Virus record (IMG/VR): IMGVR_UViG_3300027513_000017
Location: 1-58,289 of that record
DNA length: 58,289 bases
Direction: 5' to 3' (one strand)
Origin: a virus
Lineage: Duplodnaviria > Caudoviricetes
Below, in pieces: positions 23,687-56,740 of the stretch (positions within the stretch are counted from its first letter, which is position 1; each line of letters begins with the position of its first letter). The translations under genes were made by a program, and so were the position numbers. The notes beneath the pieces were generated by a model. That model saw nothing but the letters and a program-made list of their open reading frames with translations. It ran no database searches and was not told the DNA's origin.

Positions 23687-23689
23687 CCC

Positions 23690-24376
23690 ATGCAAATCAA
23701 TCGCTGCTTAATCATCGACACCGAAACATCTGGCTTGGAAGAGTCAGCGGCTGTAATCGAGGTCGGCGCCATTCTCTACTCAGTAACGAATCGTTGTTCG
23801 ATTCAGGAACTTTCAACCCTATTACCAGCGGAGACGAACGAAGCCGAGTCGATCAATCGGATCAAGCCATCGGCACTTCAGGAGTTAATCGACGTTGGCG
23901 CTGGCTACTTACTCGAATCTCTCTACACGATGAGCAAGAAGGCAGATGTCTACGTTGCTCATAACGCTGAGTTTGACAGAAAGAAGATTCAGAACAACCC
24001 GACGTTCGTACCGATCGCGAATCTGCCCTGGGTTGACACGATGGATATGAAATGGCCGCAAGCAACACGAGAGCAAGGCTCACTAATCAATCTCGCGTTA
24101 GACCACGGTATCGGCGTAGCGAGCGCGCACAGAGCCTTAACCGACTGTCGGCTGATCGCTTCCCTCTTCGACCGCATGGAAGACTTACAGGGAATGTTCG
24201 CAATCGCGATGAGACCTAAGGGCGTCTTTCAAGCATTGGTGTCCTACGACGACCGCGAGCAGGCAAAGCAAGCGGGTTTTAAGTGGGACGGGACCGCGAA
24301 GACCTGGACGCGACGAATGGCAATCGAAGACGCCACAGCGTTGACGTTCAAAGTCAGACAGTTAGAAGCGGCTTAG
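23690..24376 (+). CDS. DEDDh 3'-5' exonuclease (DnaQ-like)
   Basis: IDTETSGL, AHNAEFD, DT, HRALTD; C-terminal AKQAGFKWD...W domain. Confidence 0.85.
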   Translation: MQINRCLIIDTETSGLEESAAVIEVGAILYSVTNRCSIQELSTLLPAETNEAESINRIKPSALQELIDVGAGYLLESLYTMSKKADVYVAHNAEFDRKKIQNNPTFVPIANLPWVDTMDMKWPQATREQGSLINLALDHGIGVASAHRALTDCRLIASLFDRMEDLQGMFAIAMRPKGVFQALVSYDDREQAKQAGFKWDGTAKTWTRRMAIEDATALTFKVRQLEAA

Positions 24377-38053: not shown

Positions 38054-39502
38054 ATGAAAATAATTACTCCCATACTCAATCGACTTGGCTTACAGCATAA
38101 GGCCGCGAGCGACGTACCCGATCTCGGTCCACAGAGCCTTGCTGAGCCCACTTATCGTTTTAACGGGTGGGGTTGGAATCGCTTTCGCGGGCGAATAGAC
38201 CACAGAGCCGAGGTGGGCGATCTGGATGGTAATTCACTAGCGATGGCGGTAGTAAATTACACCGCATCGAGAATCCCCGAAGCCAAGCCGGTAGTGGTTA
38301 CGACAAAGGGTGACGAGGTTATTAGTGATCCGTTTCACCCGATGGCGAAGTTAATCCGTCGTCCCAACAATCATCATGTGTGGGCGAACTATGTTCTGGC
38401 CTGTTCTATGTCGTGGTGGTTCTCAGGTAACTGCTATTTCTACAAAGCTCGTTCCGTCTCAGGTGAGGTTGTTGCCCTTTGGTATCTGCCACACTTCTTA
38501 GTCAGACCCCGCTGGCCGAATGATCGGGCTAATCCGCAAGTTCCCTCTGACGCTAAGAACGATCCGTTTCTTTCCCATTATGAGTATCGGGTGCCTGGGC
38601 GCGAGCCGGTTCTGTACCCCGCAAAGGATATTGTTCACTTAAAGCGCGGCGTGGATCTCAGTAATGCAAGGCTAGGATTGGGCGCGTTTGAGTCGTTGTT
38701 TAAGGAGTTGTATGGCGATGAAAAGATGGCCCTATATACAGCGGCGATAATGTCCAATATGGGCATTCAGGTGCCTGTAATCTCTCCGAAAGACGGGGGG
38801 ACGGTTAGCGAGACACAGGCGGGCGCAATGAAGGAGATGTGGCTATCGAAGACCACCGGGGAAAACGCGGGCGAGCCGGTAATCCTTACTGAGGCAATTG
38901 ACATTGAGAAGTTTGGGTTTAACCCTTCCGAGTTGGATCTATCTGTCTTACGGATGATCCCCGAGTCTCGAGTAGCGGCAGTGACCGGCATTCCGGCAGC
39001 GACGTTACAGTTGATGGTCGGGCTACAAAATGGGACTTCCTATGCATCGAGTGAGCAGGCAAGACAGCAAGGATATGAAGAGGTGATTATCCCGATTCAG
39101 TCTGTGTGGGCGGAAGAGTTTACGTGGCAGTTACTGGCCGACTTCAAAGGTTCACAGAACTCCGAGTTTGCGTTCGATACTTCGAGCGTGCGGGTACTGC
39201 AGGAAGATCGTGACAATCTCTTCCGTAGAGAGACAGACGCACTAAGGTCAGGTGGACAGACGCTTAACCAATTCCTGCAAGCGGTCGGAAAGAAGCCAAT
39301 AGGGCCAGAGGGTGACATCTATTATGTACCCGGTATGTGTAAGCCAATGACCGCAGAGCGAATTCTAGCCTCGGCTGATGGTTCATTAGCGCCTGATCCG
39401 ATTGATCCATCTGTTGAGGCGGCTCAACAAGCGGCTGATATTGAGAAGATGTTTGCAGACCTTGAGGCGCAGATGAAAGGCTTCCATGCAAACGCTCGCT
39501 GA
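38054..39502 (+). CDS. Portal protein (HK97 family)
   Basis: HP...L..RPN, GNCY, LW.L....V, IVH.K, GLG; follows terL. Confidence 0.9.
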   Translation: MKIITPILNRLGLQHKAASDVPDLGPQSLAEPTYRFNGWGWNRFRGRIDHRAEVGDLDGNSLAMAVVNYTASRIPEAKPVVVTTKGDEVISDPFHPMAKLIRRPNNHHVWANYVLACSMSWWFSGNCYFYKARSVSGEVVALWYLPHFLVRPRWPNDRANPQVPSDAKNDPFLSHYEYRVPGREPVLYPAKDIVHLKRGVDLSNARLGLGAFESLFKELYGDEKMALYTAAIMSNMGIQVPVISPKDGGTVSETQAGAMKEMWLSKTTGENAGEPVILTEAIDIEKFGFNPSELDLSVLRMIPESRVAAVTGIPAATLQLMVGLQNGTSYASSEQARQQGYEEVIIPIQSVWAEEFTWQLLADFKGSQNSEFAFDTSSVRVLQEDRDNLFRRETDALRSGGQTLNQFLQAVGKKPIGPEGDIYYVPGMCKPMTAERILASADGSLAPDPIDPSVEAAQQAADIEKMFADLEAQMKGFHANAR

Positions 39503-40373
39503 GAAAGTCCAGACTCTAAGACTCCATGCGTACAAGGCCGTGAAGCTGGTTCAGTTTTGGGAGTCAGCACTAAAGGAGCATGGTGAACTTCGCGCAGAGC
39601 AGTTTTACCTCCACCTCGGCCTAAATCACATTCAAAGGAAAGGTGTTGAGTGGGAAGGACTCACCCTCTCCCGTGAGCCCACCGAAGCAGAAAAGATCGC
39701 TGTCAAAGGTGTTTCAGTCACTCAGGAATCAGCTAAGGAAGCAATTAACAAAACGCTTCTAAAACTCCGCACCGAGTTGATTGATGATGGTCTGCACCAG
39801 ATAGCTAAACTTGAGCCATCGGAGTATCACGCGCTCATTCTGGAAGCCCCAAAGGATCTCGAAAAAGAATTACGTGGCAAGCTCAGTGCGATCCACAAGC
39901 AGGGCCGACAGTTAGTCGCTAACGAGTTGGGCAAGAAAGACGCGCTCCCTGATTACGATGATGAAGAACTCGATACGCTGACAGGCTTAACAAATGCGCG
40001 GGTAGCAAATGACGTGCAGTCACGTATTGCTGACGCGGCAGCAAGGCATCGACAGGCGGGACTTGAAGGCGATGAGTTGATGGTCGCGATCGCTGATGAG
40101 ATTAGCGGCGGGTCGGTGTCGTACATCGACCGGGCAAGTATTGGGCTAGGCAACAAGGTGATCGGTCTAGGTAGGAGTTGGGAGGCGCAACGCAGGTCTG
40201 ATAGTTGGGGGCGGGTAGAATATTCAGCTCTGCTTGATAACAACGTGTGTGGCCCGTGCGCGAGTGAGGACGGTAAAACCGCGAATAGTGAAGATGATTT
40301 ACAGCCCGCGCCAAATCCTGAATGTGAAGGGAGTGACTATTGCCGTTGCTTCCACGTGTACATCAATCAATGA
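39486..40373 (+). CDS. Head morphogenesis protein (SPP1 gp7/MuF-like)
   Basis: C-terminal YSALLD..VC..C...DG.....P...C....CRC; follows the portal gene. Confidence 0.75.
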   Translation: MQTLAEKVQTLRLHAYKAVKLVQFWESALKEHGELRAEQFYLHLGLNHIQRKGVEWEGLTLSREPTEAEKIAVKGVSVTQESAKEAINKTLLKLRTELIDDGLHQIAKLEPSEYHALILEAPKDLEKELRGKLSAIHKQGRQLVANELGKKDALPDYDDEELDTLTGLTNARVANDVQSRIADAAARHRQAGLEGDELMVAIADEISGGSVSYIDRASIGLGNKVIGLGRSWEAQRRSDSWGRVEYSALLDNNVCGPCASEDGKTANSEDDLQPAPNPECEGSDYCRCFHVYINQ

Positions 40374-40984
40374 ACCCCTGGCAATTCTTCGACCGCAAAG
40401 TCTGTCTTTCTCTCCAAGACCACGAGTGGCAAAAGGGTGTGGCCGAGTTTGAGCGCATTGGCCTTCATGGTGTCGAGCGGTATCAGGCAGTAAAAGAGAT
40501 TGGTCCACACCAGAGCTTTAGTCATTCAGAACGAAACATTCTCATTGACTTCTACCATTCAGACGCGGACACGCTGTTACATCTTGAGGATGACGTTGCA
40601 TTCAGGGAGATGGATCACCTTGAACGCGCTCTGGCAGAGTTACCGATGGATTGGGACATTCTTTATCTCGGGGCTAATTTGATCTGTTGGGACAATGGCG
40701 AGCCGCAACCGGAGAGATATTCACCGCACTTGTTCAGGGTGTACGCCGCATGGACAACTCACGCAGTGGCGTACAACAAGAAGTGTGTGTTTGAAATCTT
40801 AGCGAAGCAGTCAGAGTTCAGCGTGCAGATGTTCGACAATTATTTGTCGGGTAGGTTGAGTGAGTTCAACGCTTACGTTGTGGCGCCAATGGTTGCTTAT
40901 CAGAGACCACGTTACAGCAGTATTTGGGAACGAGAAGACGATTACACCCCAATCTTTGAAGCGAGTGACGGGAAACTGAAATGA
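40370..40984 (+). CDS. Glycosyltransferase family 25-like
   Basis: SH, LEDD, LPxDWDILYLG, TTHA motifs. Confidence 0.8.
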   Translation: MNPWQFFDRKVCLSLQDHEWQKGVAEFERIGLHGVERYQAVKEIGPHQSFSHSERNILIDFYHSDADTLLHLEDDVAFREMDHLERALAELPMDWDILYLGANLICWDNGEPQPERYSPHLFRVYAAWTTHAVAYNKKCVFEILAKQSEFSVQMFDNYLSGRLSEFNAYVVAPMVAYQRPRYSSIWEREDDYTPIFEASDGKLK

Positions 40985-41169
40985 CACCCGGCAAGAAAGG
41001 TTACAACCCTGAAATAGCGGAGCTATTCTTCAAGCGTCTCCGGCAGTGTGAGGGTAATGTCACTCTTGTTTGTAAGCGACTGGACATAGCCCACGCTACG
41101 CCTTACGCATGGAAGCAGAAGTATCCAGAGTTTGCGAAGCGGTGGGAGGAGTTGAAGAAGGCCGCATGA
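40981..41169 (+). CDS. Small HTH protein
   Basis: GNVT..C....I...T.Y.W....PEF...W pattern, as in terminase-small-subunit-type HTHs. Confidence 0.65.
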   Translation: MTPGKKGYNPEIAELFFKRLRQCEGNVTLVCKRLDIAHATPYAWKQKYPEFAKRWEELKKAA

Positions 41170-41942
41170 TTCATTTAGTCACATTTGCAGATGAGTCGAT
41201 GAGCAGAGCGCGTCAGTTATGTGCTGATAGCGCAATTCGCCACGGTGTTAATCAGGTGCATCTGTGTTCGCCTGAATTCCCAACAACGGAACGCGGTTAC
41301 GGCTTTTGGCGTTGGAAGCCGGAGATGATAATCGATCGCATGAACGGTACTGAGTTCGTTGACCCGCTCAAAGACGGAGAAATCTTGATCTACAGCGATG
41401 CCGGAATCGAGTTCATCAACTCCGTCTCCCACATCATCGAGCGCATGGATCAGGACATCTTTCTATTTGGAAACAACTGGGAACACGCGCATTGGTGCAA
41501 GAGAGACATTGTTCAATGCGTCTGGCCCACTGGTAACGATGCTCCACCAGATGAAACGGTCGTGTTAGATCCGCGCCCGTGGTCGGATTTCGGCAAGCAA
41601 GTGCAAGCCTCAGTAATCTTCTTTCGTGTCTCTGACTACTCTAGAAAGTTTGTGGCTGAATGGTTGCAGTGGTGCTTGTTTGAAGGTGGGCGATTGATAG
41701 ACGACTCACCAAGCAGGGTTCCAAACCATCCAGAGTTTAGAGAGAACAGACACGATCAAGCGATACTGACTACGCTGGCGTATAGGGAAGGGATTAAACT
41801 TCATTATTGGCCTAGTGTGTACAACAAGGGCGGTTCCCCTGAGTTTGTGTACGACAAGTTGCCTGAGTATCAGAGTGACGACTATCCCGTGTTGTTTTCT
41901 CACCACAGGAAACGCAATCACGAATGGAGCGAAGCTGCATGA
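41166..41942 (+). CDS. Putative glycosyltransferase or glycan-modifying enzyme
   Basis: GYGFWRWKP.II, LIY.DAG, WCKRD, F.E.RHDQ motifs; context among glycosyltransferases. Confidence 0.6.
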   Translation: MIHLVTFADESMSRARQLCADSAIRHGVNQVHLCSPEFPTTERGYGFWRWKPEMIIDRMNGTEFVDPLKDGEILIYSDAGIEFINSVSHIIERMDQDIFLFGNNWEHAHWCKRDIVQCVWPTGNDAPPDETVVLDPRPWSDFGKQVQASVIFFRVSDYSRKFVAEWLQWCLFEGGRLIDDSPSRVPNHPEFRENRHDQAILTTLAYREGIKLHYWPSVYNKGGSPEFVYDKLPEYQSDDYPVLFSHHRKRNHEWSEAA

Positions 41943-42538
41943 CATTCGTTCCACGCGTAACCCTCAACGAAGAATCACAAGCAATCTGGCAAGGTGAAAA
42001 CCTTGAGCATCTGCGCTATGAATACGACCTCAAGCCTGACGATGTTGTAATCGACATTGGGGCGCACACAGGGGAATTCAGCCAGCGGATGGTTGAGAAG
42101 TTTCATTGTAAGGCAATCGCTATCGAGCCAACGGGATTCATTACTGATGAGGTGATGGCGAATAAGTCAATCGAAGTGATTCCACAGGCGGCATCGGATT
42201 ACGATGGGCTGCAATCATTTGGCGGTCTCTCACTTTACACTTCCATTTATGAACCGTCAGCGCATCGTTACCCTTGCTTTGATATTTGCACGCTGCTTGA
42301 AAAGTATCCTGACATTGGGTTGGTCAAAATAAACATCGAGGGCGGGGAGTATCGACTGTTGAAGCACGTTCTGCAATCAGGACTACATACCAGGATAAGG
42401 AACTTACAAGTGCAGTTCCATCAGCTTGAAGATCAACCTTATGAGCGGTGGTACGCGGAGATCGCAAATGAGCTGGCAGACACGCATGTTCTGTCGTTCC
42501 AGTATGAATACTGTTGGGAGAATTGGAGGCGAATGTGA
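41939..42538 (+). CDS. FkbM-family methyltransferase
   Basis: VIDIGAHTG.F, IEP, KINIEGGEY, QVQFH. Confidence 0.85.
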   Translation: MTFVPRVTLNEESQAIWQGENLEHLRYEYDLKPDDVVIDIGAHTGEFSQRMVEKFHCKAIAIEPTGFITDEVMANKSIEVIPQAASDYDGLQSFGGLSLYTSIYEPSAHRYPCFDICTLLEKYPDIGLVKINIEGGEYRLLKHVLQSGLHTRIRNLQVQFHQLEDQPYERWYAEIANELADTHVLSFQYEYCWENWRRM

Positions 42539-42735
42539 ACGCTAATTTTGAGGTTCGAGTTGGGCAAGAATGTTTCGGGAATATCGGGCTAGGTATAGTG
42601 CCGAAGCCAGACGGCCTCAAGGCTGTGTTGGTGGAAGTAAAGAACGGCGTCACCTACTTCAACACGGTCAAGGAATTGGACGCAGCCATTGATCTACTGA
42701 CAAAGGCCCGCGCTGAGGCGTTTCCCAATGCTTAG
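42535..42735 (+). CDS. Hypothetical protein
   Basis: GGAGG RBS; GTGA coupling; fills the gap in the cluster. Confidence 0.5.
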   Translation: MNANFEVRVGQECFGNIGLGIVPKPDGLKAVLVEVKNGVTYFNTVKELDAAIDLLTKARAEAFPNA

Positions 42736-43375
42736 TTTTGTAAACAAGTACGCGAAGAACATCTACGCCTCACAAAACGGCGAAGAAGGTATTTTGATCG
42801 AGTGCTGCAAGCGTCTTGGTATCGTTAAAGGTCATTCGGTAGAAGCTGGTGGTGCGAACGGATTATTTTGCAGTAACTCCGCGTTACTACTAAAAGACCA
42901 TCAATGGTCGGGTCTATTTGTCGAAGTGTCATACGACTTGCACCAACAGAGCAAAGCAAATTGGATTGACCGACCTGACGTAAGACACCAGTGTTCAAAG
43001 GTAGATGAGAAGAACATAAACGCCTTCGTAGATGAACGCTGTGATCTCGTCAGCTTAGATACTGACGGAAGCGACTATCGAATCTTTGAAGGCATGACAG
43101 CCAAGCCGAAGATCGTCATCGTGGAGATCGACAGCCGCATCCCGCCAGATGTGGATGAATTTAGCGCGCAGGGGGGTTCAGGATTCCGGCCAATGGTGCA
43201 ACTTGGGATCTCAAAAGGCTATTTTCTCCTTTGTCACGTTGGAAACTTGATATTCGTTGATCGTCAGTATAAAGAATTATTTCCAGAGATAGATGCTGAT
43301 CCATTGGAATATCCAGAAGCGTACTTTCTCGATGCGATCCTGACAGGTGATCGCTCGTACTTAGCCAATGTTTAA
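42728..43375 (+). CDS. FkbM-like SAM methyltransferase
   Basis: SQNGEEG, VE.G...G...SN..L.....WSG..VE, DL.S.D.DG.DY. Confidence 0.75.
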   Translation: MLSFVNKYAKNIYASQNGEEGILIECCKRLGIVKGHSVEAGGANGLFCSNSALLLKDHQWSGLFVEVSYDLHQQSKANWIDRPDVRHQCSKVDEKNINAFVDERCDLVSLDTDGSDYRIFEGMTAKPKIVIVEIDSRIPPDVDEFSAQGGSGFRPMVQLGISKGYFLLCHVGNLIFVDRQYKELFPEIDADPLEYPEAYFLDAILTGDRSYLANV

Positions 43376-43964
43376 TTTTGCCGCCATCCCGAAGTATTGC
43401 ATCAACCTGGCTCGCAGGGTAGACAGACGCGAACATGCGGAGCGGGAATTCCGGCAGCACGGGCTAGACGTTGAATTCATTACCGCCATTGACGGCAACG
43501 ATATTATCCTCCCTGAACTTAGCACTAAGGCACACGAGTATTACGCAAAGGGGAATTGGGCCTGCGTTCTGTCTCACTTATCAATTATCAAACAAGCGTC
43601 TACGGAATATATCTGCATTTTTGAAGACGACGTAAAATTGTGTGACGGGTTTACTGACCGCATGGCAAATATCGAACCACCGGCCTTTGATATTTTCTAT
43701 CTTGCGGGCGGGTACAAAGAAGGTGAAGACATTGGCAACGGATTCCATTCCGTAAAGGTGATGAATGGGACGTGGGCCTACATTCTTGGAAAAACTGCAG
43801 GGGAATTTATCGCGAGAAACATTACCTATAATTGGGGGCCGGATCAATTCTATTCTGACGTGCTGCTAAGTCGGTTTAGGGGCATCACCTACTTACCGTC
43901 AATGGCCACACCTTCGGCGTTAGCCGCAGACGGCGACATAGGGGGGCCGAGTACCGCAAGATGA
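43368..43964 (+). CDS. Glycosyltransferase family 25
   Basis: YCINL.RR.DRR, AIDG, AC.LSH, IFEDD. Confidence 0.85.
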   Translation: MFNFAAIPKYCINLARRVDRREHAEREFRQHGLDVEFITAIDGNDIILPELSTKAHEYYAKGNWACVLSHLSIIKQASTEYICIFEDDVKLCDGFTDRMANIEPPAFDIFYLAGGYKEGEDIGNGFHSVKVMNGTWAYILGKTAGEFIARNITYNWGPDQFYSDVLLSRFRGITYLPSMATPSALAADGDIGGPSTAR

Positions 43965-44506
43965 GCGAGCACCTGGGAGGAGCATTCGAGGAAGGAGATC
44001 CACTCACGTTCATGCCCGACATTTGGGGCTACTTGTTGGTCAAGTATGCATTGAAATCGGTGCTTGATATTGGTTGTGGATTTGGTTATGCGTTGAAATG
44101 GTTTGCCGAGCAAGGCTGTCAGATTCTAGGTGTCGAGGGATGGCATGAAGCAGTGGAGAGGTCGCAAGTGCCGAGTGTTATTGAGCACGACTTTCAGGAC
44201 GGTATCCCTGAAATCAGCCAGTCGTTTGACCTCGTTTGGAGTGCGGAATTTTTAGAACACGTTGAGGAGCAATATCTACCGAACATCATGCCTGTTTTCC
44301 AAAAGGCGACGTATTCCTGTATTACTCATGGAGAACCAGGACAACCCGGGTATCATCACGTCAACTGTCAGTCTGACGGTTACTGGATTGATAAATTTGC
44401 TGAGTATGGAATGATCCTGAACGAACAAGAGACAGCACTGTTAAGGCGGACTGATCGAGGGGGATTGTACGGCAGACGGACGCTGATGTTGTTTACGACG
44501 CAATGA
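43961..44506 (+). CDS. Class I SAM-dependent methyltransferase
   Basis: SVLDIGCG.G, FDL..S.E..EH, PGQ.G.HH.N.Q...YW. Confidence 0.85.
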   Translation: MSEHLGGAFEEGDPLTFMPDIWGYLLVKYALKSVLDIGCGFGYALKWFAEQGCQILGVEGWHEAVERSQVPSVIEHDFQDGIPEISQSFDLVWSAEFLEHVEEQYLPNIMPVFQKATYSCITHGEPGQPGYHHVNCQSDGYWIDKFAEYGMILNEQETALLRRTDRGGLYGRRTLMLFTTQ

Positions 44507-45264
44507 CAAACCTCGTTACCTTTAACATGCTAGGCCGCTATGGGCGACTCTGCAATCAGATGTACCAGATCGCGGGAGTGATTGGCGTAGCACGCAAGAA
44601 CGGCTTTGACTTCGCCTTCCCTCAGTGGCGCAACTGGGACCACGTTGAACGCTTTGGTTCAAGCGATGACTGCGATGTCTACAAGCATTTTGTTAATCCA
44701 CTTCCCTTATACGATGGCCCGTCACTCCCTAATCAATCAGTCGAGTGGGGCTATCACGATGTCAAACTAACTCAAGCCGTAAGCCTCTCAGGTCACTTTC
44801 AGTCAGAGAAATACTTTGAACACGCGATCGATGAGGTCAAGTGGTACTTCACAATGAAGGACGAACCTCTGTGTAATGACTATGTGGCGATCCACGTTCG
44901 GCGGGGGGATTACGATGACGCCTATCACCCGCGAGTCCCTGAGAGTTACTACCGAGCGGCAATGAGTGAGTTTCCCGATGCTCAGTTTCTAGTTTTCAGT
45001 GATGACATTGCGGAATGTAAAGAAATGTTTGGCTCGGAGGTCGATTACTCCGATGGACGTGATTACCTAGAGGACTTCAAGTTACTGAAACGCTGTAGGC
45101 ACTTCATCATTGGTAACAGCTCCTACGGGGCAATGGCGGCAGTATTAGGCGAAGCGGAAGACAAGAGAGTGGTGACACCGCGTCCGTGGTTTGGCCCTAA
45201 GTACACCGGAATTACGGGTGCAGATATTTATCCTTCAGGCGCGGTGATTATTGACTACGCATGA
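44503..45264 (+). CDS. Alpha-1,2-fucosyltransferase (GT11)
   Basis: [31 protein letters not shown]. Confidence 0.9.
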
Positions 45265-46235
45265 CTAGAGCGTTAATAACCGGAATCACGGGTCAAGACG
45301 GTAGTTACTTAGCTGAACTGCTTCTGAGTAAGGGATATGAAGTACACGGCATCGTCCGACGATCTTCTTCCTTCAATACGGGTCGCATAGACCACATCTT
45401 TGAACAGTTACACCTTCACTTTGCCGATCTCACCGACTCTTGCTCGTTAATGAATCTCTTGCAGAAGGTTCAGCCTCACGAAGTCTACAACCTCGGCGCA
45501 CAGTCGCACGTACAAGTCTCGTTTGACATTCCTGAATACACCGGAAATGCCACCGGTCTTAGTGCTACTCGATTACTAGAGTCCATTCGAGGGCTACAAC
45601 TTGAACCGAAGTTCTACCAGGCATCATCTTCTGAGCTGTTTGGTCAGGTCAAAGAGATCCCACAACGGGAAACGACACCGTTCTACCCACGCTCCCCGTA
45701 TGGATGCGCGAAGGCTTATGCATATTACGTGACGGTAAACTACCGAGAAGCATTCGGGATGCAGGCGAGCAACGGGATTCTCTTTAACCATGAGTCCGAA
45801 CGGCGCGGGGAGACATTCGTATCGCGCAAGATTACGCGAGCAGCCACTAGAATTAAACTCGGCCTACAGGACAAACTGTTCTTAGGGAACCTTGATGCAC
45901 AGCGCGATTGGGGCCACGCAAAAGACTATGTGAGAGCGATGTACCTAATGCTCCAGCATGATGCGGATGACTACGTAATCGCTACAGGTGAGACGCACTC
46001 AGTCAGAGAGTTTCTGACGGCGGCATTTGGTTATCTGGATCTCGATTGGAAGCGATATGTAGAGGTTGATCAGCGATACTTCCGACCGGCAGAGGTTGAT
46101 TTCCTGCAAGGTGACGCAAGCAAGGCAAGAAGGGTTTTAGGATGGGAGCCGGAAATAGGATTCACCGACTTAGTGCAATCAATGGTTGATGCAGATCTGA
46201 AATTAGCGCGGAATGAGGTACTTCTAGCCGCGTGA
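45261..46235 (+). CDS. gmd: GDP-mannose 4,6-dehydratase
   Basis: [69 protein letters not shown]. Confidence 0.97.
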
Positions 46236-47119
46236 AGACGTATATATCAGGACATACAGGATTAGTTGGCTCTGCTTTACTCCGGCGTCTCCCTGACTCT
46301 ATCACGCGCACGCGGGCAGAACTAGACCTGACCGACCAAAGGGCTGTTGACTACTTCTTCCACAAAGAGAAACCGGAATACGTTTACCTGGCAGCGGCTA
46401 AAGTCGGCGGGATACACGCTAATCAAACCTATCCGGCAGACTTCATTAGACACAATCTCGCCATCCAAACGAACGTGGTTCATTCCGCGTGGCAGCATGG
46501 CGTAAAGAAACTAATCTTTCTTGGCTCATCATGTATCTACCCTCGTGATTGTCCACAACCGATGAAGGAAGAATATCTATTGTCAGGCCAGTTGGAACCT
46601 ACAAATCAGTGGTACGCGGTCGCCAAGATAGCCGGCTTGAAGATGTGTGAGGCTTATCGGAATCAGTATGGGTTGAATTGCGTGTCAGTGATGCCTACAA
46701 ACCTTTACGGTCCTAACGATCATTTTGATTCGGTGAACTCTCATGTAGTTCCGAGTCTGATTAGTAAGTTTGCTAAGGGTGGCAAGGTAACGGTGTGGGG
46801 AACAGGCAAGCCAAAACGCGAACTGCTTCATGTTGATGACCTGGCTGATGCGCTCTTGACCATCATGGAGTCCTACGAAGGAGACCTAATCAACATCGGT
46901 TCAGGTGATGAAGTAACGATTCGGGAACTGGCAGAAATGATCGGAGAGATAGCCGGACACAGAGGGCCGGTTGAGTTTGACGAGACGAAACCAGACGGAC
47001 CAATGAGGAAACTGGTTGACGGTTCAAAACTTAAAGCTTTCTGGCAACCTAAAATCACGTTACATGAAGGTCTCCGCGCAACCTTTCAACACTATCAAGC
47101 ACGACTGGTACTTGCTTGA
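46232..47119 (+). CDS. fcl: GDP-L-fucose synthase (epimerase/reductase)
   Basis: [50 protein letters not shown]. Confidence 0.95.
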
Positions 47120-47181: not shown

Positions 47182-47346
47182 ATGAGTTACCCACAGAACA
47201 AAGTCCCGAACATGCCGAACATTCCGCCTCCACCTGTACGTGAAGAACGTAAGTTGTCGGAACGTGATAAGAATCTGGAGATTGAGAGTATTAAGCGCAC
47301 GTTATACAACGCGCTCGATAAGTTGGAACGATTAAAGACTAAGTAG
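47182..47346 (+). CDS. Small hypothetical protein (absent from the ORF track)
   Basis: MSYPQNKVP...LERLKTK; basic helical ORF before the capsid leader. Confidence 0.4.
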   Translation: MSYPQNKVPNMPNIPPPPVREERKLSERDKNLEIESIKRTLYNALDKLERLKTK

Positions 47347-47392
47347 TTTGACAATCATTTAGCGAGCCAGTGTACGCCTTTGAGCGTTACCC

Positions 47393-47433
47393 GCCCGCCG
47401 TGATCTTCGAAAGAGGATTGCGACGGGCTTTTT
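47393..47433 (+). terminator. Terminator-like hairpin in the leader of the prohead protease gene
   Basis: 16-bp stem (one mismatch, several G-U pairs) with GAAA loop followed by TTTTT; TTGACA at 47348. Confidence 0.65.
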
Positions 47434-47453
47434 CGTTTTGGAGCACTCCCAAG

Positions 47454-48497
47454 ATGCCCATTGAACGCAAGTCTTACCCTATTGCCGAACTCAAGAGCGA
47501 CGACGACTCAGGAATTATTGAGGCGATTGTCAGCGTGTTTTCGAACATTGATCTCGGCAACGAGAAGGTAATGCCGGGGTTCTTCGCCAAGTCGATCGAG
47601 AAGAAACTCCCTAAAGGCGTGTGGGCGCATGACTGGAAGCAGCCCATCGCAAAGACACTCGAAGCGAAAGAACTTCTTCCTGGCGATCCGCTTCTTCCTG
47701 CTCATCTGAAGAAACTCGGCGGGGCATACATCAAGGGCCAATTCAATCGAGACACCCAACGAGGACGCGAAGCCTACTCCGACATCAAGTTTGGAATCAT
47801 TGACGAATTCTCCATCGGTTACTCAGTCACTAAAGACGGCAAGGACAACGATACCGGAGCACGAGAACTGATCGAGGGTGAATGGAAAGAGTGGAGTCCA
47901 GTGCTGGTCGGAATGAACGATCAAACCGCGTTGATCTCCATCAAGTCTGACGATCACGAAGTTCAAGGTGTTCCAACTAAAGGAATGTTGGCCGAAGAGA
48001 TGGCCCAGACCACGCCTTCGACTTGGGAGGTGCAGTCGGCGTTCTCTCGTGTGATTCGCAAGATTGCCGAGTCAGCCAAAAATTCAGACATAACAGATTT
48101 AGAGTTCGATTGGAAAGCTAAAGCTACGCTGGCGTGTTCTGAGTTGGGATCGGAATTGACGCCGTTAGTCATCGCTCAGATCGAAGAATACCTGAACAGT
48201 TCAGACAGTGAGTTTTACCTCAAAGGTTCGGTAGCCGATCCCTTTGAGTCCTTCGAAAAAGCGGTAGCCGCAATTGAGAAGAACACCGCCAATTTAGAGC
48301 GCAACCACGAGAACCGGGTCAAAGAAGGCCGGATTCTCTCTTCCTCAAATCGAGCCAAAGTTCAATCCGCTTATGACGCTCTCGGAGCGTTGCTGGCCGC
48401 GTCTGAACCCCCGCCGAAAGAGAAAGAGATCGATGGTGCCGCGCTAAGGACTCAATCGCTACGGATGCAGAGCAAGGCAATAGCAGCTCTGCTATGA
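47454..48497 (+). CDS. HK97-family prohead protease with C-terminal extension
   Basis: SVF...D...E....G.F, W.HD...PI, EFSIGY, E.SPV..G.N; KEGR.LS..N. Confidence 0.9.
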   Translation: MPIERKSYPIAELKSDDDSGIIEAIVSVFSNIDLGNEKVMPGFFAKSIEKKLPKGVWAHDWKQPIAKTLEAKELLPGDPLLPAHLKKLGGAYIKGQFNRDTQRGREAYSDIKFGIIDEFSIGYSVTKDGKDNDTGARELIEGEWKEWSPVLVGMNDQTALISIKSDDHEVQGVPTKGMLAEEMAQTTPSTWEVQSAFSRVIRKIAESAKNSDITDLEFDWKAKATLACSELGSELTPLVIAQIEEYLNSSDSEFYLKGSVADPFESFEKAVAAIEKNTANLERNHENRVKEGRILSSSNRAKVQSAYDALGALLAASEPPPKEKEIDGAALRTQSLRMQSKAIAALL

Positions 48498-48508
48498 GGG
48501 ATTAAACG

Positions 48509-49807
48509 ATGCCTTTAGAGCAGGATGCCGCGCTACTGCAAACAAAAGTAGCCGAGACACGCGCTTTTTGGGACAAGGTTGGCGATGCCGATCTAACCCA
48601 AGAGCAGAAGCAGGAAATCGACGGGATCAACAAGACGGTTGAAGAGTTGAGCGCGAAGGTTTCCGAGTCAAAAAAATACCAACAAATTAGAGCAGAGCAA
48701 GAAGCGTTAGCCGCTGGCTTGAATGCACCGGTTCACACTCCTGACTTTGGTAGCAAGGATCTCAAAGGTCGCGAACCTGAGCGTGAGACCAAGAGTGTTG
48801 GTGAGCGGTTCACTGACCGCAAGGAATTCAAGGAATGGTTCAAGAGCGTTGCGCCGTCCGGCGAGATCAACGAAACCTCATCGATCGGATTCTCCTGTCC
48901 ACCGTTGACTCTCGAGGGTAAGGCTCTCGTGACTGGTTCGTCCGCTGCTTCCGGTGGCGCGTTGGTGCGACGTGACTATGCCGGTCTCGTTGATTTTCCG
49001 TTCCGTCCAATGACGTTGCGAGATGTCATTACGATTGGCCGAACGGGGTCAGATCTGATCGAGTTCCCGCGCGTAGTTAGCTACACCTCGGCTGCTGCCA
49101 CCGTGGCCGAAGCAACGACTGCTCCAACATCCTTTAGTCAGGCAAGCAACGGTTTGAAGCCTGAGTCATCGATGGTCCTAGAGAAGGTTACGGCGACAGT
49201 GAAGACCATTGCTCACTGGATACCGCTAACCCGACGCGCTCTGTCTGATGCACCGCAAATCGAAACCCTCATCAACAACTTTCTCGAGTTTGGCTTGGAT
49301 GATGCCGAGGAAACTCAGATCGTAACCGGCAACGGATCGGGCGAGAACTTCCTCGGTCTCGACAACACTCCAAACATCACTCTCCAGGCATTCGACACGG
49401 ACATCCTGACCACGACCCGCAAAGCCAGAACAGCGGCAGCCGTAACAGGTCGCGCGCGGTCTACCGCGTTTGTGATGCACCCGTATGACTGGGAAGCCTT
49501 CGACCTCTTGAAGGACGCAGAGAACCGCTACTACTGGGGTGGCCCAACGGTTCTCGGACAGAAGATGTTGTGGGGTCTCCCGGTTGTTGAGTCTGAGGCG
49601 ATGCGCCTAAAGACTTTTTACACAGGCGATCTCAAGCAGGCAATTTTGTGGGACAGAGAAATGATGACGATTCGCATGAGCGATGCGCCTAACGATTTCT
49701 TCCTGCGAAACATGTTGGCGATTCTCGCAGAACGCAGAGCGGCCTTCGGTGTGTTTAGACCGCCCGCAATCGTTCGCGGAGACCTTCTGGCAGGTCCTAA
49801 CAGTTAA
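48509..49807 (+). CDS. Major capsid protein (HK97 fold)
   Basis: N-terminal coiled-coil delta domain; KTIAHW...R.AL.DAP, G.G.G.N..G, MHP.DW, LWGLPVV, F..N...I.AE.R. Confidence 0.95.
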   Translation: MPLEQDAALLQTKVAETRAFWDKVGDADLTQEQKQEIDGINKTVEELSAKVSESKKYQQIRAEQEALAAGLNAPVHTPDFGSKDLKGREPERETKSVGERFTDRKEFKEWFKSVAPSGEINETSSIGFSCPPLTLEGKALVTGSSAASGGALVRRDYAGLVDFPFRPMTLRDVITIGRTGSDLIEFPRVVSYTSAAATVAEATTAPTSFSQASNGLKPESSMVLEKVTATVKTIAHWIPLTRRALSDAPQIETLINNFLEFGLDDAEETQIVTGNGSGENFLGLDNTPNITLQAFDTDILTTTRKARTAAAVTGRARSTAFVMHPYDWEAFDLLKDAENRYYWGGPTVLGQKMLWGLPVVESEAMRLKTFYTGDLKQAILWDREMMTIRMSDAPNDFFLRNMLAILAERRAAFGVFRPPAIVRGDLLAGPNS

Positions 49808-49844: not shown

Positions 49845-49878
49845 GGCGGCTTCTCTTGCTCCCGTAGGAGGAGCCGCC
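49845..49878 (+). promoter_or_regulatory. Hairpin sequestering the SD of the GT4 gene
   Basis: GGCGGCTTCTC pairs with GGAGGAGCCGCC, which contains the GGAGGAG SD upstream of ATG 49887. Confidence 0.55.
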
Positions 49879-49886
49879 CTTACTTT

Positions 49887-51191
49887 ATGAAACTACTTTT
49901 TATCCTTCACATGTATCAGCCTTACCACAATGCGGGTGGTGAGACGACCGCGCACACTGCGATGAAGGCGATGGTAGATCGAGGCCACGATGTAACGGTA
50001 GTTTTTAGGCCGCAGAATGAAACCGAAGGCGACAAGTGTCCTGACATCTATGAATACGAGGGCGTGAAATGCATTAAGAGTCCGCTGAACACCGCCCAAG
50101 CATTCATTAAGGATGTGATCACTCGCATAGATCCAGACCTCTTAATCACTCACCTCGACCTGACCACCTTAGCGATGCAGTTGAGTCTTGATACTCATAA
50201 ACCTTTGGCCCATTGGGTACACAACACAATGAGTCTTGATGTGTTTCATGTGTCCCCGCAGAAGTGCCAACTAGCAATCTTTAACTCAAATTGGGTGGCT
50301 GAGTTCTACAAGTGGAAAGGTCCACAGATCGTGATCCATCCCACGGTGGAGCCAGATCGCTATCGGTGTGAAAAAGGCACGAAGATCACGCTCGTTAATC
50401 CAACCCCAGGCAAAGGCGCGGATCAGTTTTATCAACTCTCCAAGATGCTCCCTGATTATGAATTTCTGACAGTGAAGAGTGTTTATGGCGAACAGATCGC
50501 GGTGCCGAATATATCGGCTCATCTTCACCCGAACGTGGAAACGATGGAGCACACGGCAGACATCAGGGAAGCGTTACGCAAGACAAAAGTTCTCCTGATG
50601 CCCTCGCAGTACGAGTCCTATGGTCGCGTAGCAGTCGAGGCGGCGTGTTCTGGTATTCCGACTATCGCTCACCCGACCCCCGGGCTATTGGAAGCGTTGG
50701 GTGACGCGGGAATCTTCTGCGATAGAGACGATCTCCCGTCATGGAAGAACGCTATCGAGCGGTTAATGACAGATGATGTCTATTACCGCAAACGCTCAGA
50801 TTTAGCCCTCGAACTAGCTAACAGTCTCGATCCTGAGAGCGAATTCGATCGATTGGAGGAAGCATTGTTAGTCACTAGCAGAGCATTTAACCAGGAGGAC
50901 GTAATGGAAAGAGTTTTGTACGCCAATCGAAGGTTTGGAAAGAAGCCTGATGGCAGTCTGAGCGATCAGATGCACGAGTGTCGCTCGCTCGTTTGCGGTG
51001 GTCCAGGTGCGCCAATTCCTTTCGAGTGTTTAGAGGAAGCAAAGGCGTTGGGTTATGCCGATATACCCGCAGATCAGCCGTCAGAGAAGACCGAGATTCT
51101 TCTGGACACGAAAGCACTAACTGAAGCTCCAGAGAACAAGGCGATTCAGGAACCTGAGCAGAAGAAAACAAGGAAGCGAAAGACCGCCTGA
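49887..51191 (+). CDS. GT4-family glycosyltransferase fused to a C-terminal post-capsid small-protein domain
   Basis: GGE......M..RGH.V.V, KG...F, LLMPS.YESYGRVAVEA...G.P; extra tail of about 95 aa. Confidence 0.85.
   Translation: MKLLFILHMYQPYHNAGGETTAHTAMKAMVDRGHDVTVVFRPQNETEGDKCPDIYEYEGVKCIKSPLNTAQAFIKDVITRIDPDLLITHLDLTTLAMQLSLDTHKPLAHWVHNTMSLDVFHVSPQKCQLAIFNSNWVAEFYKWKGPQIVIHPTVEPDRYRCEKGTKITLVNPTPGKGADQFYQLSKMLPDYEFLTVKSVYGEQIAVPNISAHLHPNVETMEHTADIREALRKTKVLLMPSQYESYGRVAVEAACSGIPTIAHPTPGLLEALGDAGIFCDRDDLPSWKNAIERLMTDDVYYRKRSDLALELANSLDPESEFDRLEEALLVTSRAFNQEDVMERVLYANRRFGKKPDGSLSDQMHECRSLVCGGPGAPIPFECLEEAKALGYADIPADQPSEKTEILLDTKALTEAPENKAIQEPEQKKTRKRKTA
50904..51191 (+). CDS. In-frame internal ORF (95 aa), putative post-capsid small protein
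   Basis: AGGAGG 50893-50898 five nt before in-frame ATG 50904; ends APENKAIQEPEQKKTRKRKTA. Confidence 0.55.
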   Translation: MERVLYANRRFGKKPDGSLSDQMHECRSLVCGGPGAPIPFECLEEAKALGYADIPADQPSEKTEILLDTKALTEAPENKAIQEPEQKKTRKRKTA

Positions 51192-52794: not shown

Positions 52795-53418
52795 ATGGCA
52801 GACAATTGGCTAACTACTCGGGTGGCACTAGGGCCAGGTAAGCTCTATGCCAACTTGGGAGGCACGACAAACTCTCCGTGGGACGGAGCTTCTGGTGTTC
52901 GTCTCCTACTGGCTTCTGATGGGCAGCCAAACGCTACTCAGAACCCGAACTACCTTCATCTCGGCATGACCGAGGGCGGCGAAGAGTGGTCAGTTAAAGA
53001 CACTGCTACCCACTTTAAGGCCGACGAGTTTCCCACTCCGATCATCTCGCGCATTACCGATCAGGAAATCGTGATCACTGGGTCGCTGTTACAGATCAGT
53101 GATATGGCTGTGCAGGCGATGATGAATACCACGGCAACGAGATCGGACGTGGGCGGATCTGAGGGTCTAACTTGGGGCAGTCTGACGCCGACAATTACCT
53201 ATCGATCGTTTGCGGTGATCTGGCCTGTCGAAGGTGATACGACCAAATTCACCGTGTTCCATGTCTACAAAGCGTTTAACGACACCGGAATGGCCGCGCA
53301 AATCTCCAGCACCAAACTGGGAGCATCACCTTTTGCCATTCGTGGTTATCCGATTACCACCAGAACGGCGGGCGACATGAGTGCACGCTTCTTTAGACAA
53401 GTTTCGGGAACAAGCTGA
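52795..53418 (+). CDS. Major tail protein
   Basis: GPG.LY, LG.T.GG motifs; AGGAGA RBS; precedes chaperone and tape measure genes. Confidence 0.8.
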   Translation: MADNWLTTRVALGPGKLYANLGGTTNSPWDGASGVRLLLASDGQPNATQNPNYLHLGMTEGGEEWSVKDTATHFKADEFPTPIISRITDQEIVITGSLLQISDMAVQAMMNTTATRSDVGGSEGLTWGSLTPTITYRSFAVIWPVEGDTTKFTVFHVYKAFNDTGMAAQISSTKLGASPFAIRGYPITTRTAGDMSARFFRQVSGTS

Positions 53419-54289: not shown

Positions 54290-54316
54290 ACAACTTAATC
54301 CTGAGTGATTCCTTGT

Positions 54317-54352
54317 GAGTCCAGTTCTCTTGAGCTGGGCTTTCTTGTTTTT
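54317..54352 (+). terminator. Hairpin plus U tract directly before the tape measure start codon
   Basis: GAGTCCAGTTC-tctt-GAGCTGGGCTT then TCTTGTTTTT-ATG. Confidence 0.5.
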
Positions 54353-56740
54353 ATGGCAGACGATCTTTCATTACTGTTTCGACTGCGCGCGCAGAACCAA
54401 GCCTCACCCGCAATCAAGCAGGTGCAGGGCGATGTCTCTAGACTCACCAAGACAACCTCCACAGAGTTCAACGCCATGCAGCAGGTCACTACCTCTGCAC
54501 TGGGCCGGATCACGTCTTCACTAACTAACTTTTCTTCTCAGATTCCGGTTGTTGGTAATGCCGTATCCGGCCTGTCAGATGAACTGACGACAATGGCAAC
54601 GTCAACAGGGGCATCGGGGAGCCAGTTTGCCGCCCTTGCGGGACCGATTGGGATCGCAGTTACGGTCATCGGAGCACTTACTGGGGCCGCAGTGTTAGGC
54701 GGTAAGGCTTTATTTGATCTAACAGTAACGACCGCAGACTTTCAGGGGAAGCTATTTGATCTTGGTCAGCAAGTCGGGGTGAGCGTCGAGACTCTTTCCA
54801 CGCTGGACATTATTGCTACGCAGACGGGCGGCAGTATTGAAACGGTCACAGCAAGCCTCGGAATCTTTCAGAAGACACTAGAAGCGGCGCAAGATCCAAC
54901 CTCAAAAGAAGCCGAACTATTAGCCGAACTCGGAATTACTTCAAGTGATACCGAAGTCGCTTTAAGACAAGCACTCAAGGCGCTTTTTGATCTAGGTGAA
55001 GGATCGGAGCAGACAGCCAAGAGTCTCGAGTTGTTCGGGCGTGGTGGCCGATTTGTTAATGCCATCATGAAAGAGAGCGGCGGCAATATCGACGTGCTCA
55101 TGGAGAAGTATCGTGACCTCGGAATCCTCATCACCACAGACGTAGCCTCCGCGTCGGATCAATTCAACGACGACCTCGACACGATCAATCGACAGGTAAG
55201 AGCACTCACGGCAGAGATCGGCAACGAGTTGATGCCGACCGTGTTGGCGGCGATTCAGCAGATAGGTCAATTCTTAGAGCAGAATCGTGGAGTCCTGGCG
55301 AATTGGGTCACGGACGTTGAAGACGCCATCAGGGGGGTATCAAGGTTCGCTGATGCTATCTATCCGTTAGTCGATGCAATCACCGCGCTCGTGGTGGTTC
55401 TCGAACGGGCCAACCTCTTACAAGGAACAATCGGCTCGCTTATCGACGCCGCGCAACTACTCGGGCAGAACCCAGAGATTGCCCCGCTCAAGATTCCCGA
55501 TCTTGCGGTCCCGATTCGGCCCAGTACGACTCTGCCAGGATCTATTTCAGCCCCTAAGAAATCGGGTAAATCAGAAGCTGATGCTTCTCTCCAATTACTA
55601 AAGCAACTTCAGACAGAGATGTTGCGACTTGAAGATGCAACGAAGACTCAAATTGTAGCGGCTGAATTACTGGACGAGAAGTACAAGAACATCAATCCAG
55701 AGATTAAGAGACAGATTGAGCTGTTGGCCCGCCTGATTGATACCAAGAAGGATCAGCAAGAAGTAGATGAGCAAATAGAAGCGGCGGCGAAGGAATTAAA
55801 GCAGGCCATCGACGCAGAGGTTAAGTCGCTTATCTCGTTTATCGAAGCGCAGAGATTAACGATTAGAGGAACACAGTCAGCTATTGACGCGGCAGATGAA
55901 TATATTTTGCGGTTTGACAATCTCAGCGGGGCAATGGATGAGGTAATTCAGGCCCATCTGCGATTTCAAGCCATCCTCATTGACTCATCCAAACACGCCC
56001 AGCAATTAGCCGAAGACTTAGCCCGAGTTGCAGAAATCACTCCACCCATCGGTGGTACTCCACCGTTTGACGGAACTACCGTTCCCGAACCTGGCACCGT
56101 CCCGATTGACATTGAGGGTGAGATTGGCCCACCACCTGAGTTAACGATTTGGGAAGAAGCGATCGGGTCTCTCCAAGATCGGATGGTGAACTTCTCTGAC
56201 TTCCTCGGCGGCACGTTTATCGACTCCCTCCACGGTGTGGCCGACGCGCTCGCGCAAGGCATTGAAGCATGGGCTTTATACGGCGGCTCGTTTGGTCAGG
56301 CAATGAAGCAAGCCCTAGCTGCACTTGCCGCGAAGATTGCCGCAGAAGCCACGTTACAAGCCGCGTTGCATGCTGCTTATGCCATCGCATCTCTCGCCTT
56401 TGGAGACTTTGGTAGCGCAGCAAGGCACGGAATTGCAGCGGCGAAGTTTGCGGCTATTGCTGGAGGCGCGGCGTTAGGCGCGCGCGCGTTAGCAGGCGGC
56501 GCATTCGATCAAGGCGGTAGTGGTTCATCATCAGGGAGTGGGAATCGATCCACCTCACGCAATAACACACAGAACCAGAATGAGAAGTTGGCACCTATCG
56601 ACATTCCGCGTAACGCTCAAGGCCAACATTTGACCGTGAAGATTCAACCGCCTGAAGGATGGGTGGGCCAAGAGTTTCGTAAGGACTACAACTTAAACGG
56701 AGTGACCCGACTAACGATCTTGACTGACGGACAGAGTTAA
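54353..56740 (+). CDS. Tape measure protein
   Basis: Ala/Leu-rich helical protein of about 795 aa; L.F.L.A.NQAS, ELFGRGG motifs; canonical position. Confidence 0.9.
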   Translation: MADDLSLLFRLRAQNQASPAIKQVQGDVSRLTKTTSTEFNAMQQVTTSALGRITSSLTNFSSQIPVVGNAVSGLSDELTTMATSTGASGSQFAALAGPIGIAVTVIGALTGAAVLGGKALFDLTVTTADFQGKLFDLGQQVGVSVETLSTLDIIATQTGGSIETVTASLGIFQKTLEAAQDPTSKEAELLAELGITSSDTEVALRQALKALFDLGEGSEQTAKSLELFGRGGRFVNAIMKESGGNIDVLMEKYRDLGILITTDVASASDQFNDDLDTINRQVRALTAEIGNELMPTVLAAIQQIGQFLEQNRGVLANWVTDVEDAIRGVSRFADAIYPLVDAITALVVVLERANLLQGTIGSLIDAAQLLGQNPEIAPLKIPDLAVPIRPSTTLPGSISAPKKSGKSEADASLQLLKQLQTEMLRLEDATKTQIVAAELLDEKYKNINPEIKRQIELLARLIDTKKDQQEVDEQIEAAAKELKQAIDAEVKSLISFIEAQRLTIRGTQSAIDAADEYILRFDNLSGAMDEVIQAHLRFQAILIDSSKHAQQLAEDLARVAEITPPIGGTPPFDGTTVPEPGTVPIDIEGEIGPPPELTIWEEAIGSLQDRMVNFSDFLGGTFIDSLHGVADALAQGIEAWALYGGSFGQAMKQALAALAAKIAAEATLQAALHAAYAIASLAFGDFGSAARHGIAAAKFAAIAGGAALGARALAGGAFDQGGSGSSSGSGNRSTSRNNTQNQNEKLAPIDIPRNAQGQHLTVKIQPPEGWVGQEFRKDYNLNGVTRLTILTDGQS

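Follow-up and report, generated by a model that had tools for sequence, protein, structure and literature searches.

The viral record IMGVR_UViG_3300027513_000017 (Duplodnaviria; Caudoviricetes) is a linear-class sequence of 58,289 bp with an estimated completeness of 86%; the whole stretch was analysed and is called the window here. Its head genes include a cassette of eleven genes, designated g1 to g9, gmd and fcl, that encodes predicted enzymes of sugar activation, sugar transfer and methylation, and that may serve to glycosylate the phage particle. On the plus strand, which carries every gene described below unless stated otherwise, the order is a terS candidate, terL, portal, a gene in the position of a minor head protein, the eleven cassette genes, a gap, the prohead protease, the major capsid protein (MCP), a GT4-family glycosyltransferase (GT), an adaptor, tail genes and the tape measure (54305-56740). 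The flanking genes were assigned by family matches, namely Terminase_3 for terL, Phage_portal (7.4e-34) for portal, Pfam Peptidase_S78 (2e-13) for the S78 serine protease (47370..48497) and Phage_capsid (2.9e-44) for the HK97-fold MCP (48509..49807). An earlier note on this DNA had described eleven genes that overlap by 4 or 8 bp between the minor-head-position gene and the protease, and the junctions of the open reading frames (ORFs) agree with it exactly: from the minor-head-position gene to fcl, and taking the start codons that overlap the upstream stop, the overlaps are 4, 4, 4, 4, 4, 8, 8, 4, 4, 4 and 4 bp in order. Further upstream, terS and terL overlap by 14 bp, and portal and the minor-head-position gene by 17 bp.

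The last two cassette genes encode a donor-sugar branch. The gmd product (45261..46235) is a GDP-mannose 4,6-dehydratase that scored 508 bits with TIGR01472 (1.2e-152; cut-off 415) and also matched Pfam GDP_Man_Dehyd (5.3e-134). The product of fcl (46232..47119, GTG start), a GDP-L-fucose synthase (GMER), matched over residues 2-288 the PDB entries 7ll6 (6.2e-93) and E. coli 1e6u (1.5e-91) in phmmer searches, and its SSCIYP and YAVAK motifs align with those of solved GDP-L-fucose synthases; we take these to be the Ser/Cys and Tyr-x3-Lys catalytic motifs of GMER-type short-chain dehydrogenases/reductases. As judged from these matches, the two proteins are predicted to form a bona fide GDP-L-fucose branch. 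The earlier note went too far in calling the pathway self-contained, because no NTP_transferase-family enzyme, and thus no mannose-1-phosphate guanylyltransferase, was found in the record, so that the host must supply GDP-mannose as well as UDP-sugars and S-adenosylmethionine (SAM).

Five GTs accompany this branch, of which two within the cassette have clear family matches. The candidate fucosyltransferase g9 (44503..45264) matched Pfam GT11 at 2.9e-15 (56.7 bits against a cut-off of 23.9) in its C-terminal half only (profile positions 163-267 of 298) and phrog_2644 over its full length (1.7e-44); a search of PDB sequences with the protein returned nothing useful. It carries HVRRGDY at residues 131-137, and we take HxRRGDY to be the GDP-fucose motif that defines GT11 alpha-1,2-fucosyltransferases. 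The GT25 enzyme g7 (43368..43964) matched Pfam Glyco_transf_25 at 6.3e-17 (62.5 bits against 24) and phrog_2835 at 5e-14. A GT that the earlier note did not list, the fifth, is encoded directly 3′ of the capsid gene (49887..51191); this GT-B enzyme of the GT4 family matched Glyco_trans_1_4 (1.2e-13), Glycos_transf_1 (8.7e-13), Glyco_transf_4 (6.6e-8) and phrog_26352 (5.1e-69).

The remaining two GTs, g1 and g3, were recognized by fold, with structures predicted from alignments of their phage homologs. The product of g1 (40370..40984), which the earlier note had called a GT25 enzyme, has no match in Pfam, NCBIfam or PHROG, so that the name found no backing in the family libraries; a profile of 10 homologs matched COLGALT1 (E 0.0046), the AlphaFold model (pLDDT 89) gave the GT25 domain of human COLGALT1 as its top Foldseek match (E 7.7e-10, TMq 0.65-0.71) and Mimivirus R655 at 8.9e-8, and an E-D-D motif is invariant among the homologs. 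We therefore describe g1 as a predicted GT25-like GT-A glycosyltransferase, by profile and fold only; compared with g7 by hhalign, it gave a probability of 34%. The product of g3 (41166..41942) has invariant YxDAGxE and HRHDQA motifs and no match in Pfam, NCBIfam, PHROG or PDB sequences, the last searched with the g3 profile as well. Its model (pLDDT 70, pTM 0.77) matched GT8 LgtC (top) and the GT6 enzymes GTA, GTB and alpha3GalT in Foldseek at E ~3e-6, and in VIA-align GTB and BoGT6a scored Z 13.0 and the capsid-glycosylating A64R of PBCV-1 scored Z 12.5. Thus the predicted fold lies nearest the retaining GT8/GT6 enzymes; since all 50 matches listed are tied within 0.7 Z (12.3-13.0), and GT6 entries dominate the PDB, only the assignment as a GT-A transferase of unnamed family is safe.

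Three (probable) methyltransferases complete the enzyme set. The SAM methyltransferase g4 (41939..42538) belongs to the FkbM family by TIGR01444 (3.2e-11, 43.8 bits against 37.7) and fell just below the cut-off of Pfam Methyltransf_21 (22.2 bits), and g8 (43961..44506) is a class I SAM methyltransferase (Methyltransf_11, 9.3e-12; Methyltransf_23, 5.8e-10). These matches above cut-off, or to solved structures in the case of Fcl, uphold the earlier assignments of Gmd, Fcl, g9, g7, g8 and g4. For g6 (42728..43375), previously called FkbM-like, the Methyltransf_21 match (1.5e-4, 22.4 bits) lies 0.3 bit under the cut-off of 22.7 and a profile search of the PDB was uninformative; with its Gly-rich VEIGGNDG motif it is a probable FkbM-like methyltransferase. 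We also considered g4 and g6 as paralogs and rejected this, no BLASTP similarity between them being detectable. Two small genes are specific to the window: g2 (40981..41169, 62 aa), a possible helix-turn-helix (HTH) protein for which the earlier label is backed by sub-threshold matches only (HTH_Tnp_1, 0.0033; Sf6 terminase-small-like, 0.0066; phrog_4044, 2.7e-4), and g5 (42535..42735, 66 aa, GTG start), with no meaningful family match and no homolog in related loci.

The arrangement and the solubility of these proteins bear on where they would act. Because every junction is an overlapping stop and start, the cassette would be translated along with the head genes, and the operon structure suggests that this takes place late in infection. 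A scan with a sigma-70 model, which may not suit the host, found 6 promoter-like sites against 14.4 expected from shuffled sequences, so that there is no enrichment, in agreement with the earlier statement that no separate promoter is obvious. By scan, the cassette has neither a promoter nor a terminator of its own. The absence of transmembrane helices and flippase-type proteins that had been claimed was also borne out. With a hydrophobic segment defined as 19 residues with a Kyte-Doolittle value ≥1.6, no cassette protein contains one, and no ORF of the 58-kb record has more than two; nor were Gtr-type components (GtrA, GtrB, GtrC, Oac/Wzy-like polytopic proteins) found in this 86%-complete record.

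The main rival to virion glycosylation is remodelling of the host envelope, in which soluble GTs would act at the cytoplasmic face and extend lipid-linked intermediates of the host, be they lipopolysaccharide (LPS) or lipooligosaccharide (LOS) core, O-units or capsule precursors. The products would be exported by host Wzx/Wzy/WaaL and would alter the cell surface in infection or lysogeny, and superinfection exclusion or the masking of receptors on debris would follow. The enzyme families fit this well, as GT25, GT11, GT4 and GT8/GT6-like enzymes are classic in LPS/LOS synthesis. Distant g3 relatives (23-34% identity) were found on 19 genome contigs that lack a cassette or head-gene match, for example from Helicobacter and Chitinophagaceae. 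The phage also has a temperate-like gene set, comprising an S24 repressor-type peptidase, Erf, YqaJ exonuclease, single-stranded DNA-binding protein (SSB), an RNase_T-like protein and NinG (19909-20328, minus strand; 21913-24376, plus strand; 16299-16751, minus strand). In the part of the source available, the authors who found gmd, fcl and an alpha-1,2-fucosyltransferase gene in a cyanophage interpret them as cell-wall modification (PMC9602691). Against a role in the envelope stand the translational coupling of the cassette inside the head operon without its own promoter or terminator, the absence of Gtr-like or other polytopic membrane proteins noted above, and the absence of an integrase from the 86%-complete record. 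The conservation of the locus and the behaviour of the capsid tail, described next, point away from it as well, and we consider it unlikely on balance.

A search of IMG/VR with a g3 alignment confirmed at least 193 contigs, and the best 80 of the 193 were compared by placing the proteins of the window and of a second backbone onto the g3 loci. The cassette lies inside the head module in 77 of these 80 loci, the other three being too short to judge, and it does so in two architectures. Type A (27/80) has the order portal-MuF-g1-g3-[FkbM]-FkbM2-[fcl]-GT11-[gmd]-protease-MCP-GT4-adaptor, and type B (53/80), whose backbone genes were confirmed by Pfam, the order portal-MuF-protease-MCP-g1-g3-[FkbM][FkbM2]-GT11-GT4-connector. 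The universal core thus consists of g1, g3, GT11 and GT4, with GT4 placed after the MCP gene in type A and last in the cassette in type B, and it occupies two slots of two distant head modules, within ~2.5 kb of the MCP gene or adjoining it. The search for related genomes that the earlier note had proposed therefore shows a core kept in phage head modules. Morons are usually sporadic, and such a fixed association in two architectures argues against envelope remodelling. The type-A GT4 proteins (434-439 aa) share a conserved Lys/Glu-rich C-terminal extension of ~100 aa (window residues ~330-434) that the type-B forms (355-361 aa) lack. Most of the type-A relatives keep g6, as do 10 of 33 in type B. 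In metagenomic protein collections g3 has 887 relatives at E<=1e-3, all unnamed, and three contigs binned into metagenome-assembled genomes (MAGs) labelled Cyclobacteriaceae, Saprospiraceae and Terrimicrobiaceae proved to be type-B phage contigs carrying g3. A search with the GT11 protein gave 14 related viral loci.

Among the loci compared, the window carries the fullest version of the cassette, which the earlier note had called much more complete than the usual cassettes of a few GTs. It has both gmd and fcl, a combination found in none of the 17 type-A relatives that span the interval from the MuF position to the protease. An fcl-like gene occurs in 11 of these 17, two of them only 26% and 35% identical, and gmd in one, L124 (L124:8854-10116), where it encodes 420 aa with a C-terminal extension of ~100 aa and stands without fcl; neither gene occurs in the 33 type-B loci that span MCP to GT4. 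By their gene content, the 11 relatives with "orphan" GDP-fucose synthases would need a host Gmd. For g2, g5, g7 and g8, no counterpart occupies this place in any of the 27 type-A loci, and gmd, the second GT25 and the third methyltransferase were probably acquired recently by the window phage. A separate search of IMG/VR for Gmd relatives gave at least 599 stretches; in the best 80 loci of these, fcl was present within 10 kb in 42 and a GT11 relative in 21, and none of the 80 carries the high-identity core cassette of the window.

Three side observations concern the mobility of such genes. In a phage of another lineage (L090:3559-9271), gmd lies between a portal gene, whose product is 32% identical to that of the window, and a prohead protease, which suggests that sugar genes land repeatedly in the slot between portal and protease. 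An unrelated viral contig of 88.6 kb carries GT25-like, GT11, g3-like, class I methyltransferase (37.5% identical to g8), gmd and fcl genes within 12 kb (L115:498-11852). Genes resembling GIY-YIG/NUMOD and HNH homing endonucleases lie in or beside the cassettes of relatives (L002:3975-4838, L010:5069-6130, L002:13265-14002), and it is possible that they drive the shuffling of the cassette.

The capsid protein itself provided a second line of evidence. The window MCP ends in ...DLLAGPNS, and an alignment of 8 type-A MCPs shows this Gly-x-Asn-Ser end without variation. An IMG/VR search with a type-A MCP alignment confirmed 554 stretches, of which 80 with 41-62% identity to the window MCP were compared. 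All 23 cassette-bearing relatives, like the window, end in G-x-N-S, as against none of the 57 others, and in a FastTree phylogeny of the MCPs these 23 loci and the window form one clade. This covariation of capsid tail and cassette is a further point against remodelling of the envelope. A second MCP clade of 27 loci, of which 23 end in G-S or G-x-S, three in LLAAT and one in GALS, lacks the enzymes of the window and has other genes that start 9-74 nt after the MCP stop; they encode proteins of 400-590 aa (L227-L275) belonging to GT1/GT4 families or to Methyltransf_24 with or without Nucleotid_trans (for example L244:11197-12933, L267:11289-12482 and L237:11334-12524). Locus L266 has too little downstream sequence for the comparison of enzyme sets. 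The remaining MCPs form a grade that ends in DLTA; in 12 of its loci, none of 77 neighbouring ORFs matched a GT or methyltransferase family, and one matched Glyphos_transf. The serine end is also found on the putative major tail (tube) protein (52795..53418), assigned by its position two ORFs 5′ of the tape measure, which ends in ...VSGTS; its homologs in cassette-bearing relatives, where complete, end in G-x(0-2)-S in 10 of 10 cases.

Considering that synteny is maintained in two architectures and that the cassette is linked to the G-x-N-S capsid tail, we regard the virion as the best-supported target, and we propose, as a reading that is somewhat likely to be right, that the phage encodes a cytoplasmic system that O-glycosylates its own virion with a fucosylated, methylated glycan. 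Transcription of the head operon would take place late in infection, and the cassette would be translated along with the head genes. Gmd and Fcl would convert host GDP-mannose to GDP-L-fucose, and the core transferases g1 (GT25-like), g3 (GT-A), g9 (GT11) and GT4, joined by the phage-specific extra GT25 enzyme g7, would build a short fucose-containing oligosaccharide. The FkbM-type proteins g4 and g6 and the class I enzyme g8 would O-methylate the glycan. As acceptors, the MCP and the tail-tube protein would most likely serve with their flexible C-terminal Gly-x-(Asn)-Ser tails, in parallel to Corndog and Che8, and the finished glycan might shield the particle. The earlier note had proposed a glycan on the capsid; its observation is confirmed and its interpretation partly supported.

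A more specific version of this reading can be put forward. In it, a histo-blood-group-like, O-methylated glycan would sit on the C-terminal Ser of capsid and tube proteins, composed of a GT25-type beta-hexose, an alpha-1,2-fucose added by GT11 from the phage's own GDP-fucose and an alpha-linked cap placed on Fuc-Gal by the GT6-like g3. We hold this to be decidedly doubtful; the Fuc-alpha1,2-Gal "H-antigen" of the earlier note was likewise a guess from family names, in that linkages are not readable from sequence. If the specific version were true, uncultured phages that infect hosts other than actinobacteria would, by the hundreds, have a defined glycan coat encoded through its enzymes, with the G-x-(N)-S-COOH tail as a portable tag for glycosylation.

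Several observations weigh against virion glycosylation. The link between tail and cassette amounts to about two independent clades, and relatedness could explain much of it. The loose pattern G-x(0-2)-S is found in 5 of the 103 window ORFs, including the tape-measure protein. At L257 (L257:8236-9087), the gene for an MCP that ends in DLTA is followed, 0.6 kb on, by that of a GT4 homolog with 42% identity. The MCPs of L232 and of Mycobacterium phage Charlie end in GS, and no homologs of the two enzyme sets were found in their neighbourhood. Among the type-B MCPs, several end in LVGGA, LVGAM or LVGGV, so that their last four residues include none with a hydroxyl group. The enzymes also have no significant sequence similarity to Corndog gp35-38 (best BLASTP E 0.002). 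Together with the typical use of these GT families in LPS/LOS synthesis, the ~30%-identical chromosomal relatives of g3 in Helicobacter and Chitinophagaceae and the repressor-type S24 peptidase, which makes expression in lysogeny possible, count on the same side.

The type-B MCPs without Ser or Thr at the extreme C-terminus also lend something to a third explanation, in which the enzymes act on another intracellular target, be it phage DNA (as glycosylated, hypermodified bases), a protein other than MCP and tube such as a scaffold, a decoration protein or a minor component of the virion, or a soluble metabolite. The acceptor of a transferase is not readable from its sequence, and phage GTs are known from DNA hypermodification, as Pyle et al. 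2024 reportedly describe. For DNA as the target, genes of this kind would be expected beside replication genes, where DNA-modification genes normally lie, and not between portal and protease. No hydroxymethylase of the thymidylate-synthase family (PF00303) was found in the incomplete record, in a search whose control recovered PF00303 in 10 of 14 genomes, and we know of no case in which FkbM O-methylation or fucosylation serves as a DNA modification. DNA glycosylation is thus unlikely, and since the tail-motif association favours MCP and tube, we judge this third explanation as a whole to be very improbable.

The reality of the gene order was examined in other assemblies. Contigs of runs X2, X3, X4 and X6 match the window between 40000 and 49900 at low depth with zero differing letters in the pieces listed; those of X2 cover 30 of 30 bins of the region and those of X3 28 of 30, and pieces span the g4/g5/g6, g6/g7, g8/g9 and gmd/fcl junctions. 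Because contigs of several runs agree and bridge these junctions, the order is not a chimera of one assembly. The four runs are labelled freshwater-sediment or sediment metagenomes. The GC content is ~50% throughout the window, with no break in composition at the cassette, and this value indicates that the host is probably not a mycobacterium. ARAGORN found no tRNA in the window, and hence no clue to the host from tRNAs, and the labels of the three MAG-binned type-B contigs were not used for naming a host, as they conflict at phylum level. When compared by megablast with 50,697 phage records, the cassette gave no match, and our literature searches found no account of it; they did bring to light the cyanophage genes discussed above (PMC9602691).

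Other features of the head region are as follows. The minor-head-position gene (39486..40373) encodes 295 aa with a Cys-rich CxxxxxCRC end and is kept beside portal in those type-A relatives whose contigs reach that far. It had been described as MuF-like, a label that we dropped, there being no Pfam or PHROG match and an hhalign E of only 0.14 against the true MuF genes (Phage_Mu_F) of type B; no relatives were confirmed in a search with this protein, the relatives having come by way of other genes. The gap of 250 nt before the protease holds a candidate ORF of 54 aa (47182..47346), which does not convincingly resemble the small ORFs that occupy this place in L002 and L008. In the interval that separates the MCP gene from GT4, the terminator scan found an attenuator-like hairpin with a 15-bp stem (49845..49878), which may attenuate read-through into GT4. 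In the early region, a 149-aa protein (17639-18088, minus strand) matches Pfam BTG (3.2e-9), a family that is mainly eukaryotic, which makes the match an unusual one for a phage.

To our knowledge, only a few mycobacteriophages have been shown to glycosylate their virions with enzymes of their own, and there the modification lowers antibody recognition. If the cassette acts as proposed, it would show that virion glycosylation is widespread in uncultured phages, given that the signature gene g3 is present in the IMG/VR contigs and metagenomic protein relatives counted above, and that it can be carried out by a different enzyme set, with its own fucose-donor branch in the window phage. A Gly-x-Ser tail on capsid and tube proteins together with an adjoining transferase gene would be a simple, testable predictor. 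Once confirmed, the system would offer a compact toolkit for putting defined glycans on phage particles and would help to account for the tuning of particle stability, adsorption or recognition by phages in the environment.

Comparison with known systems places the cassette among several that it resembles in part. Phage-encoded sugar-modifying enzymes, sometimes in temperate phages, are also seen in seroconversion by GtrABC and O-acetylases; these are polytopic membrane proteins that act in the periplasm and are expressed as morons in lysogeny, in contrast to the soluble enzymes in the head operon of the window. The isolated cyanophage S-SCSM1 has an alpha-1,2-fucosyltransferase as one of several GTs and also encodes Gmd and GDP-L-fucose synthase, according to the part of its description available (PMC9602691). 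That set and other viral gmd-fcl-fucosyltransferase sets differ in being read as auxiliary "cell-wall" genes and, in the accounts at hand, in not being reported from a head operon.

For the donor branch, the closest known system is capsid glycosylation in chloroviruses. In the accessible portion of one account, virus-encoded GMD and GMER feed a fucose-containing, methylated capsid glycan, and some relatives without gmd and gmer still have fucose (PMC5408694). The latter is matched by the relatives of the window, most of which lack gmd. PBCV-1, with its capsid protein Vp54, further shares with the window cytoplasmic GTs, including a GT4-like enzyme and one with a methyltransferase domain, and one of the structural matches to g3 is A64R. 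As a giant virus of eukaryotes, PBCV-1 differs in its double-jelly-roll capsid, its N-linked glycans on Asn and its dispersed genes, and the likeness is one of function and fold, with no demonstrated homology at the sequence level.

Functionally, the closest system is the virion glycosylation of mycobacteriophages Corndog and Che8, the latter reportedly O-glycosylated (Freeman et al. 2023). Systems of this type are characterized by soluble GTs, sometimes joined by a methyltransferase, that are encoded in the structural operon of the virion or next to it, and the window has this arrangement. As described in the section of the report available, Corndog (cluster O) encodes an O-methyltransferase (gp35) and three GTs (gp36-38) between portal and protease, the same slot as in the window, and the enzymes are absent from virions and produced in infected cells (PMC4351075). 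The Corndog MCP ends in VGS and its major tail protein in GDS, corresponding to the Gly-(x)-Ser ends of the window MCP and tube protein. Available parts of two further reports place the glycans of mycobacteriophages at the C-termini of capsid and tail-tube subunits (PMC12619734) and name capsid and tail tube as the targets of the cluster O enzymes (PMC11600133). No homology is detectable between the enzymes of the two phages, the best BLASTP matches (g7/gp38, E 0.002; g6/gp36, 0.012) being not significant, and five GTs, three methyltransferases and a GDP-fucose branch in the window compare with three GTs and one methyltransferase in Corndog.

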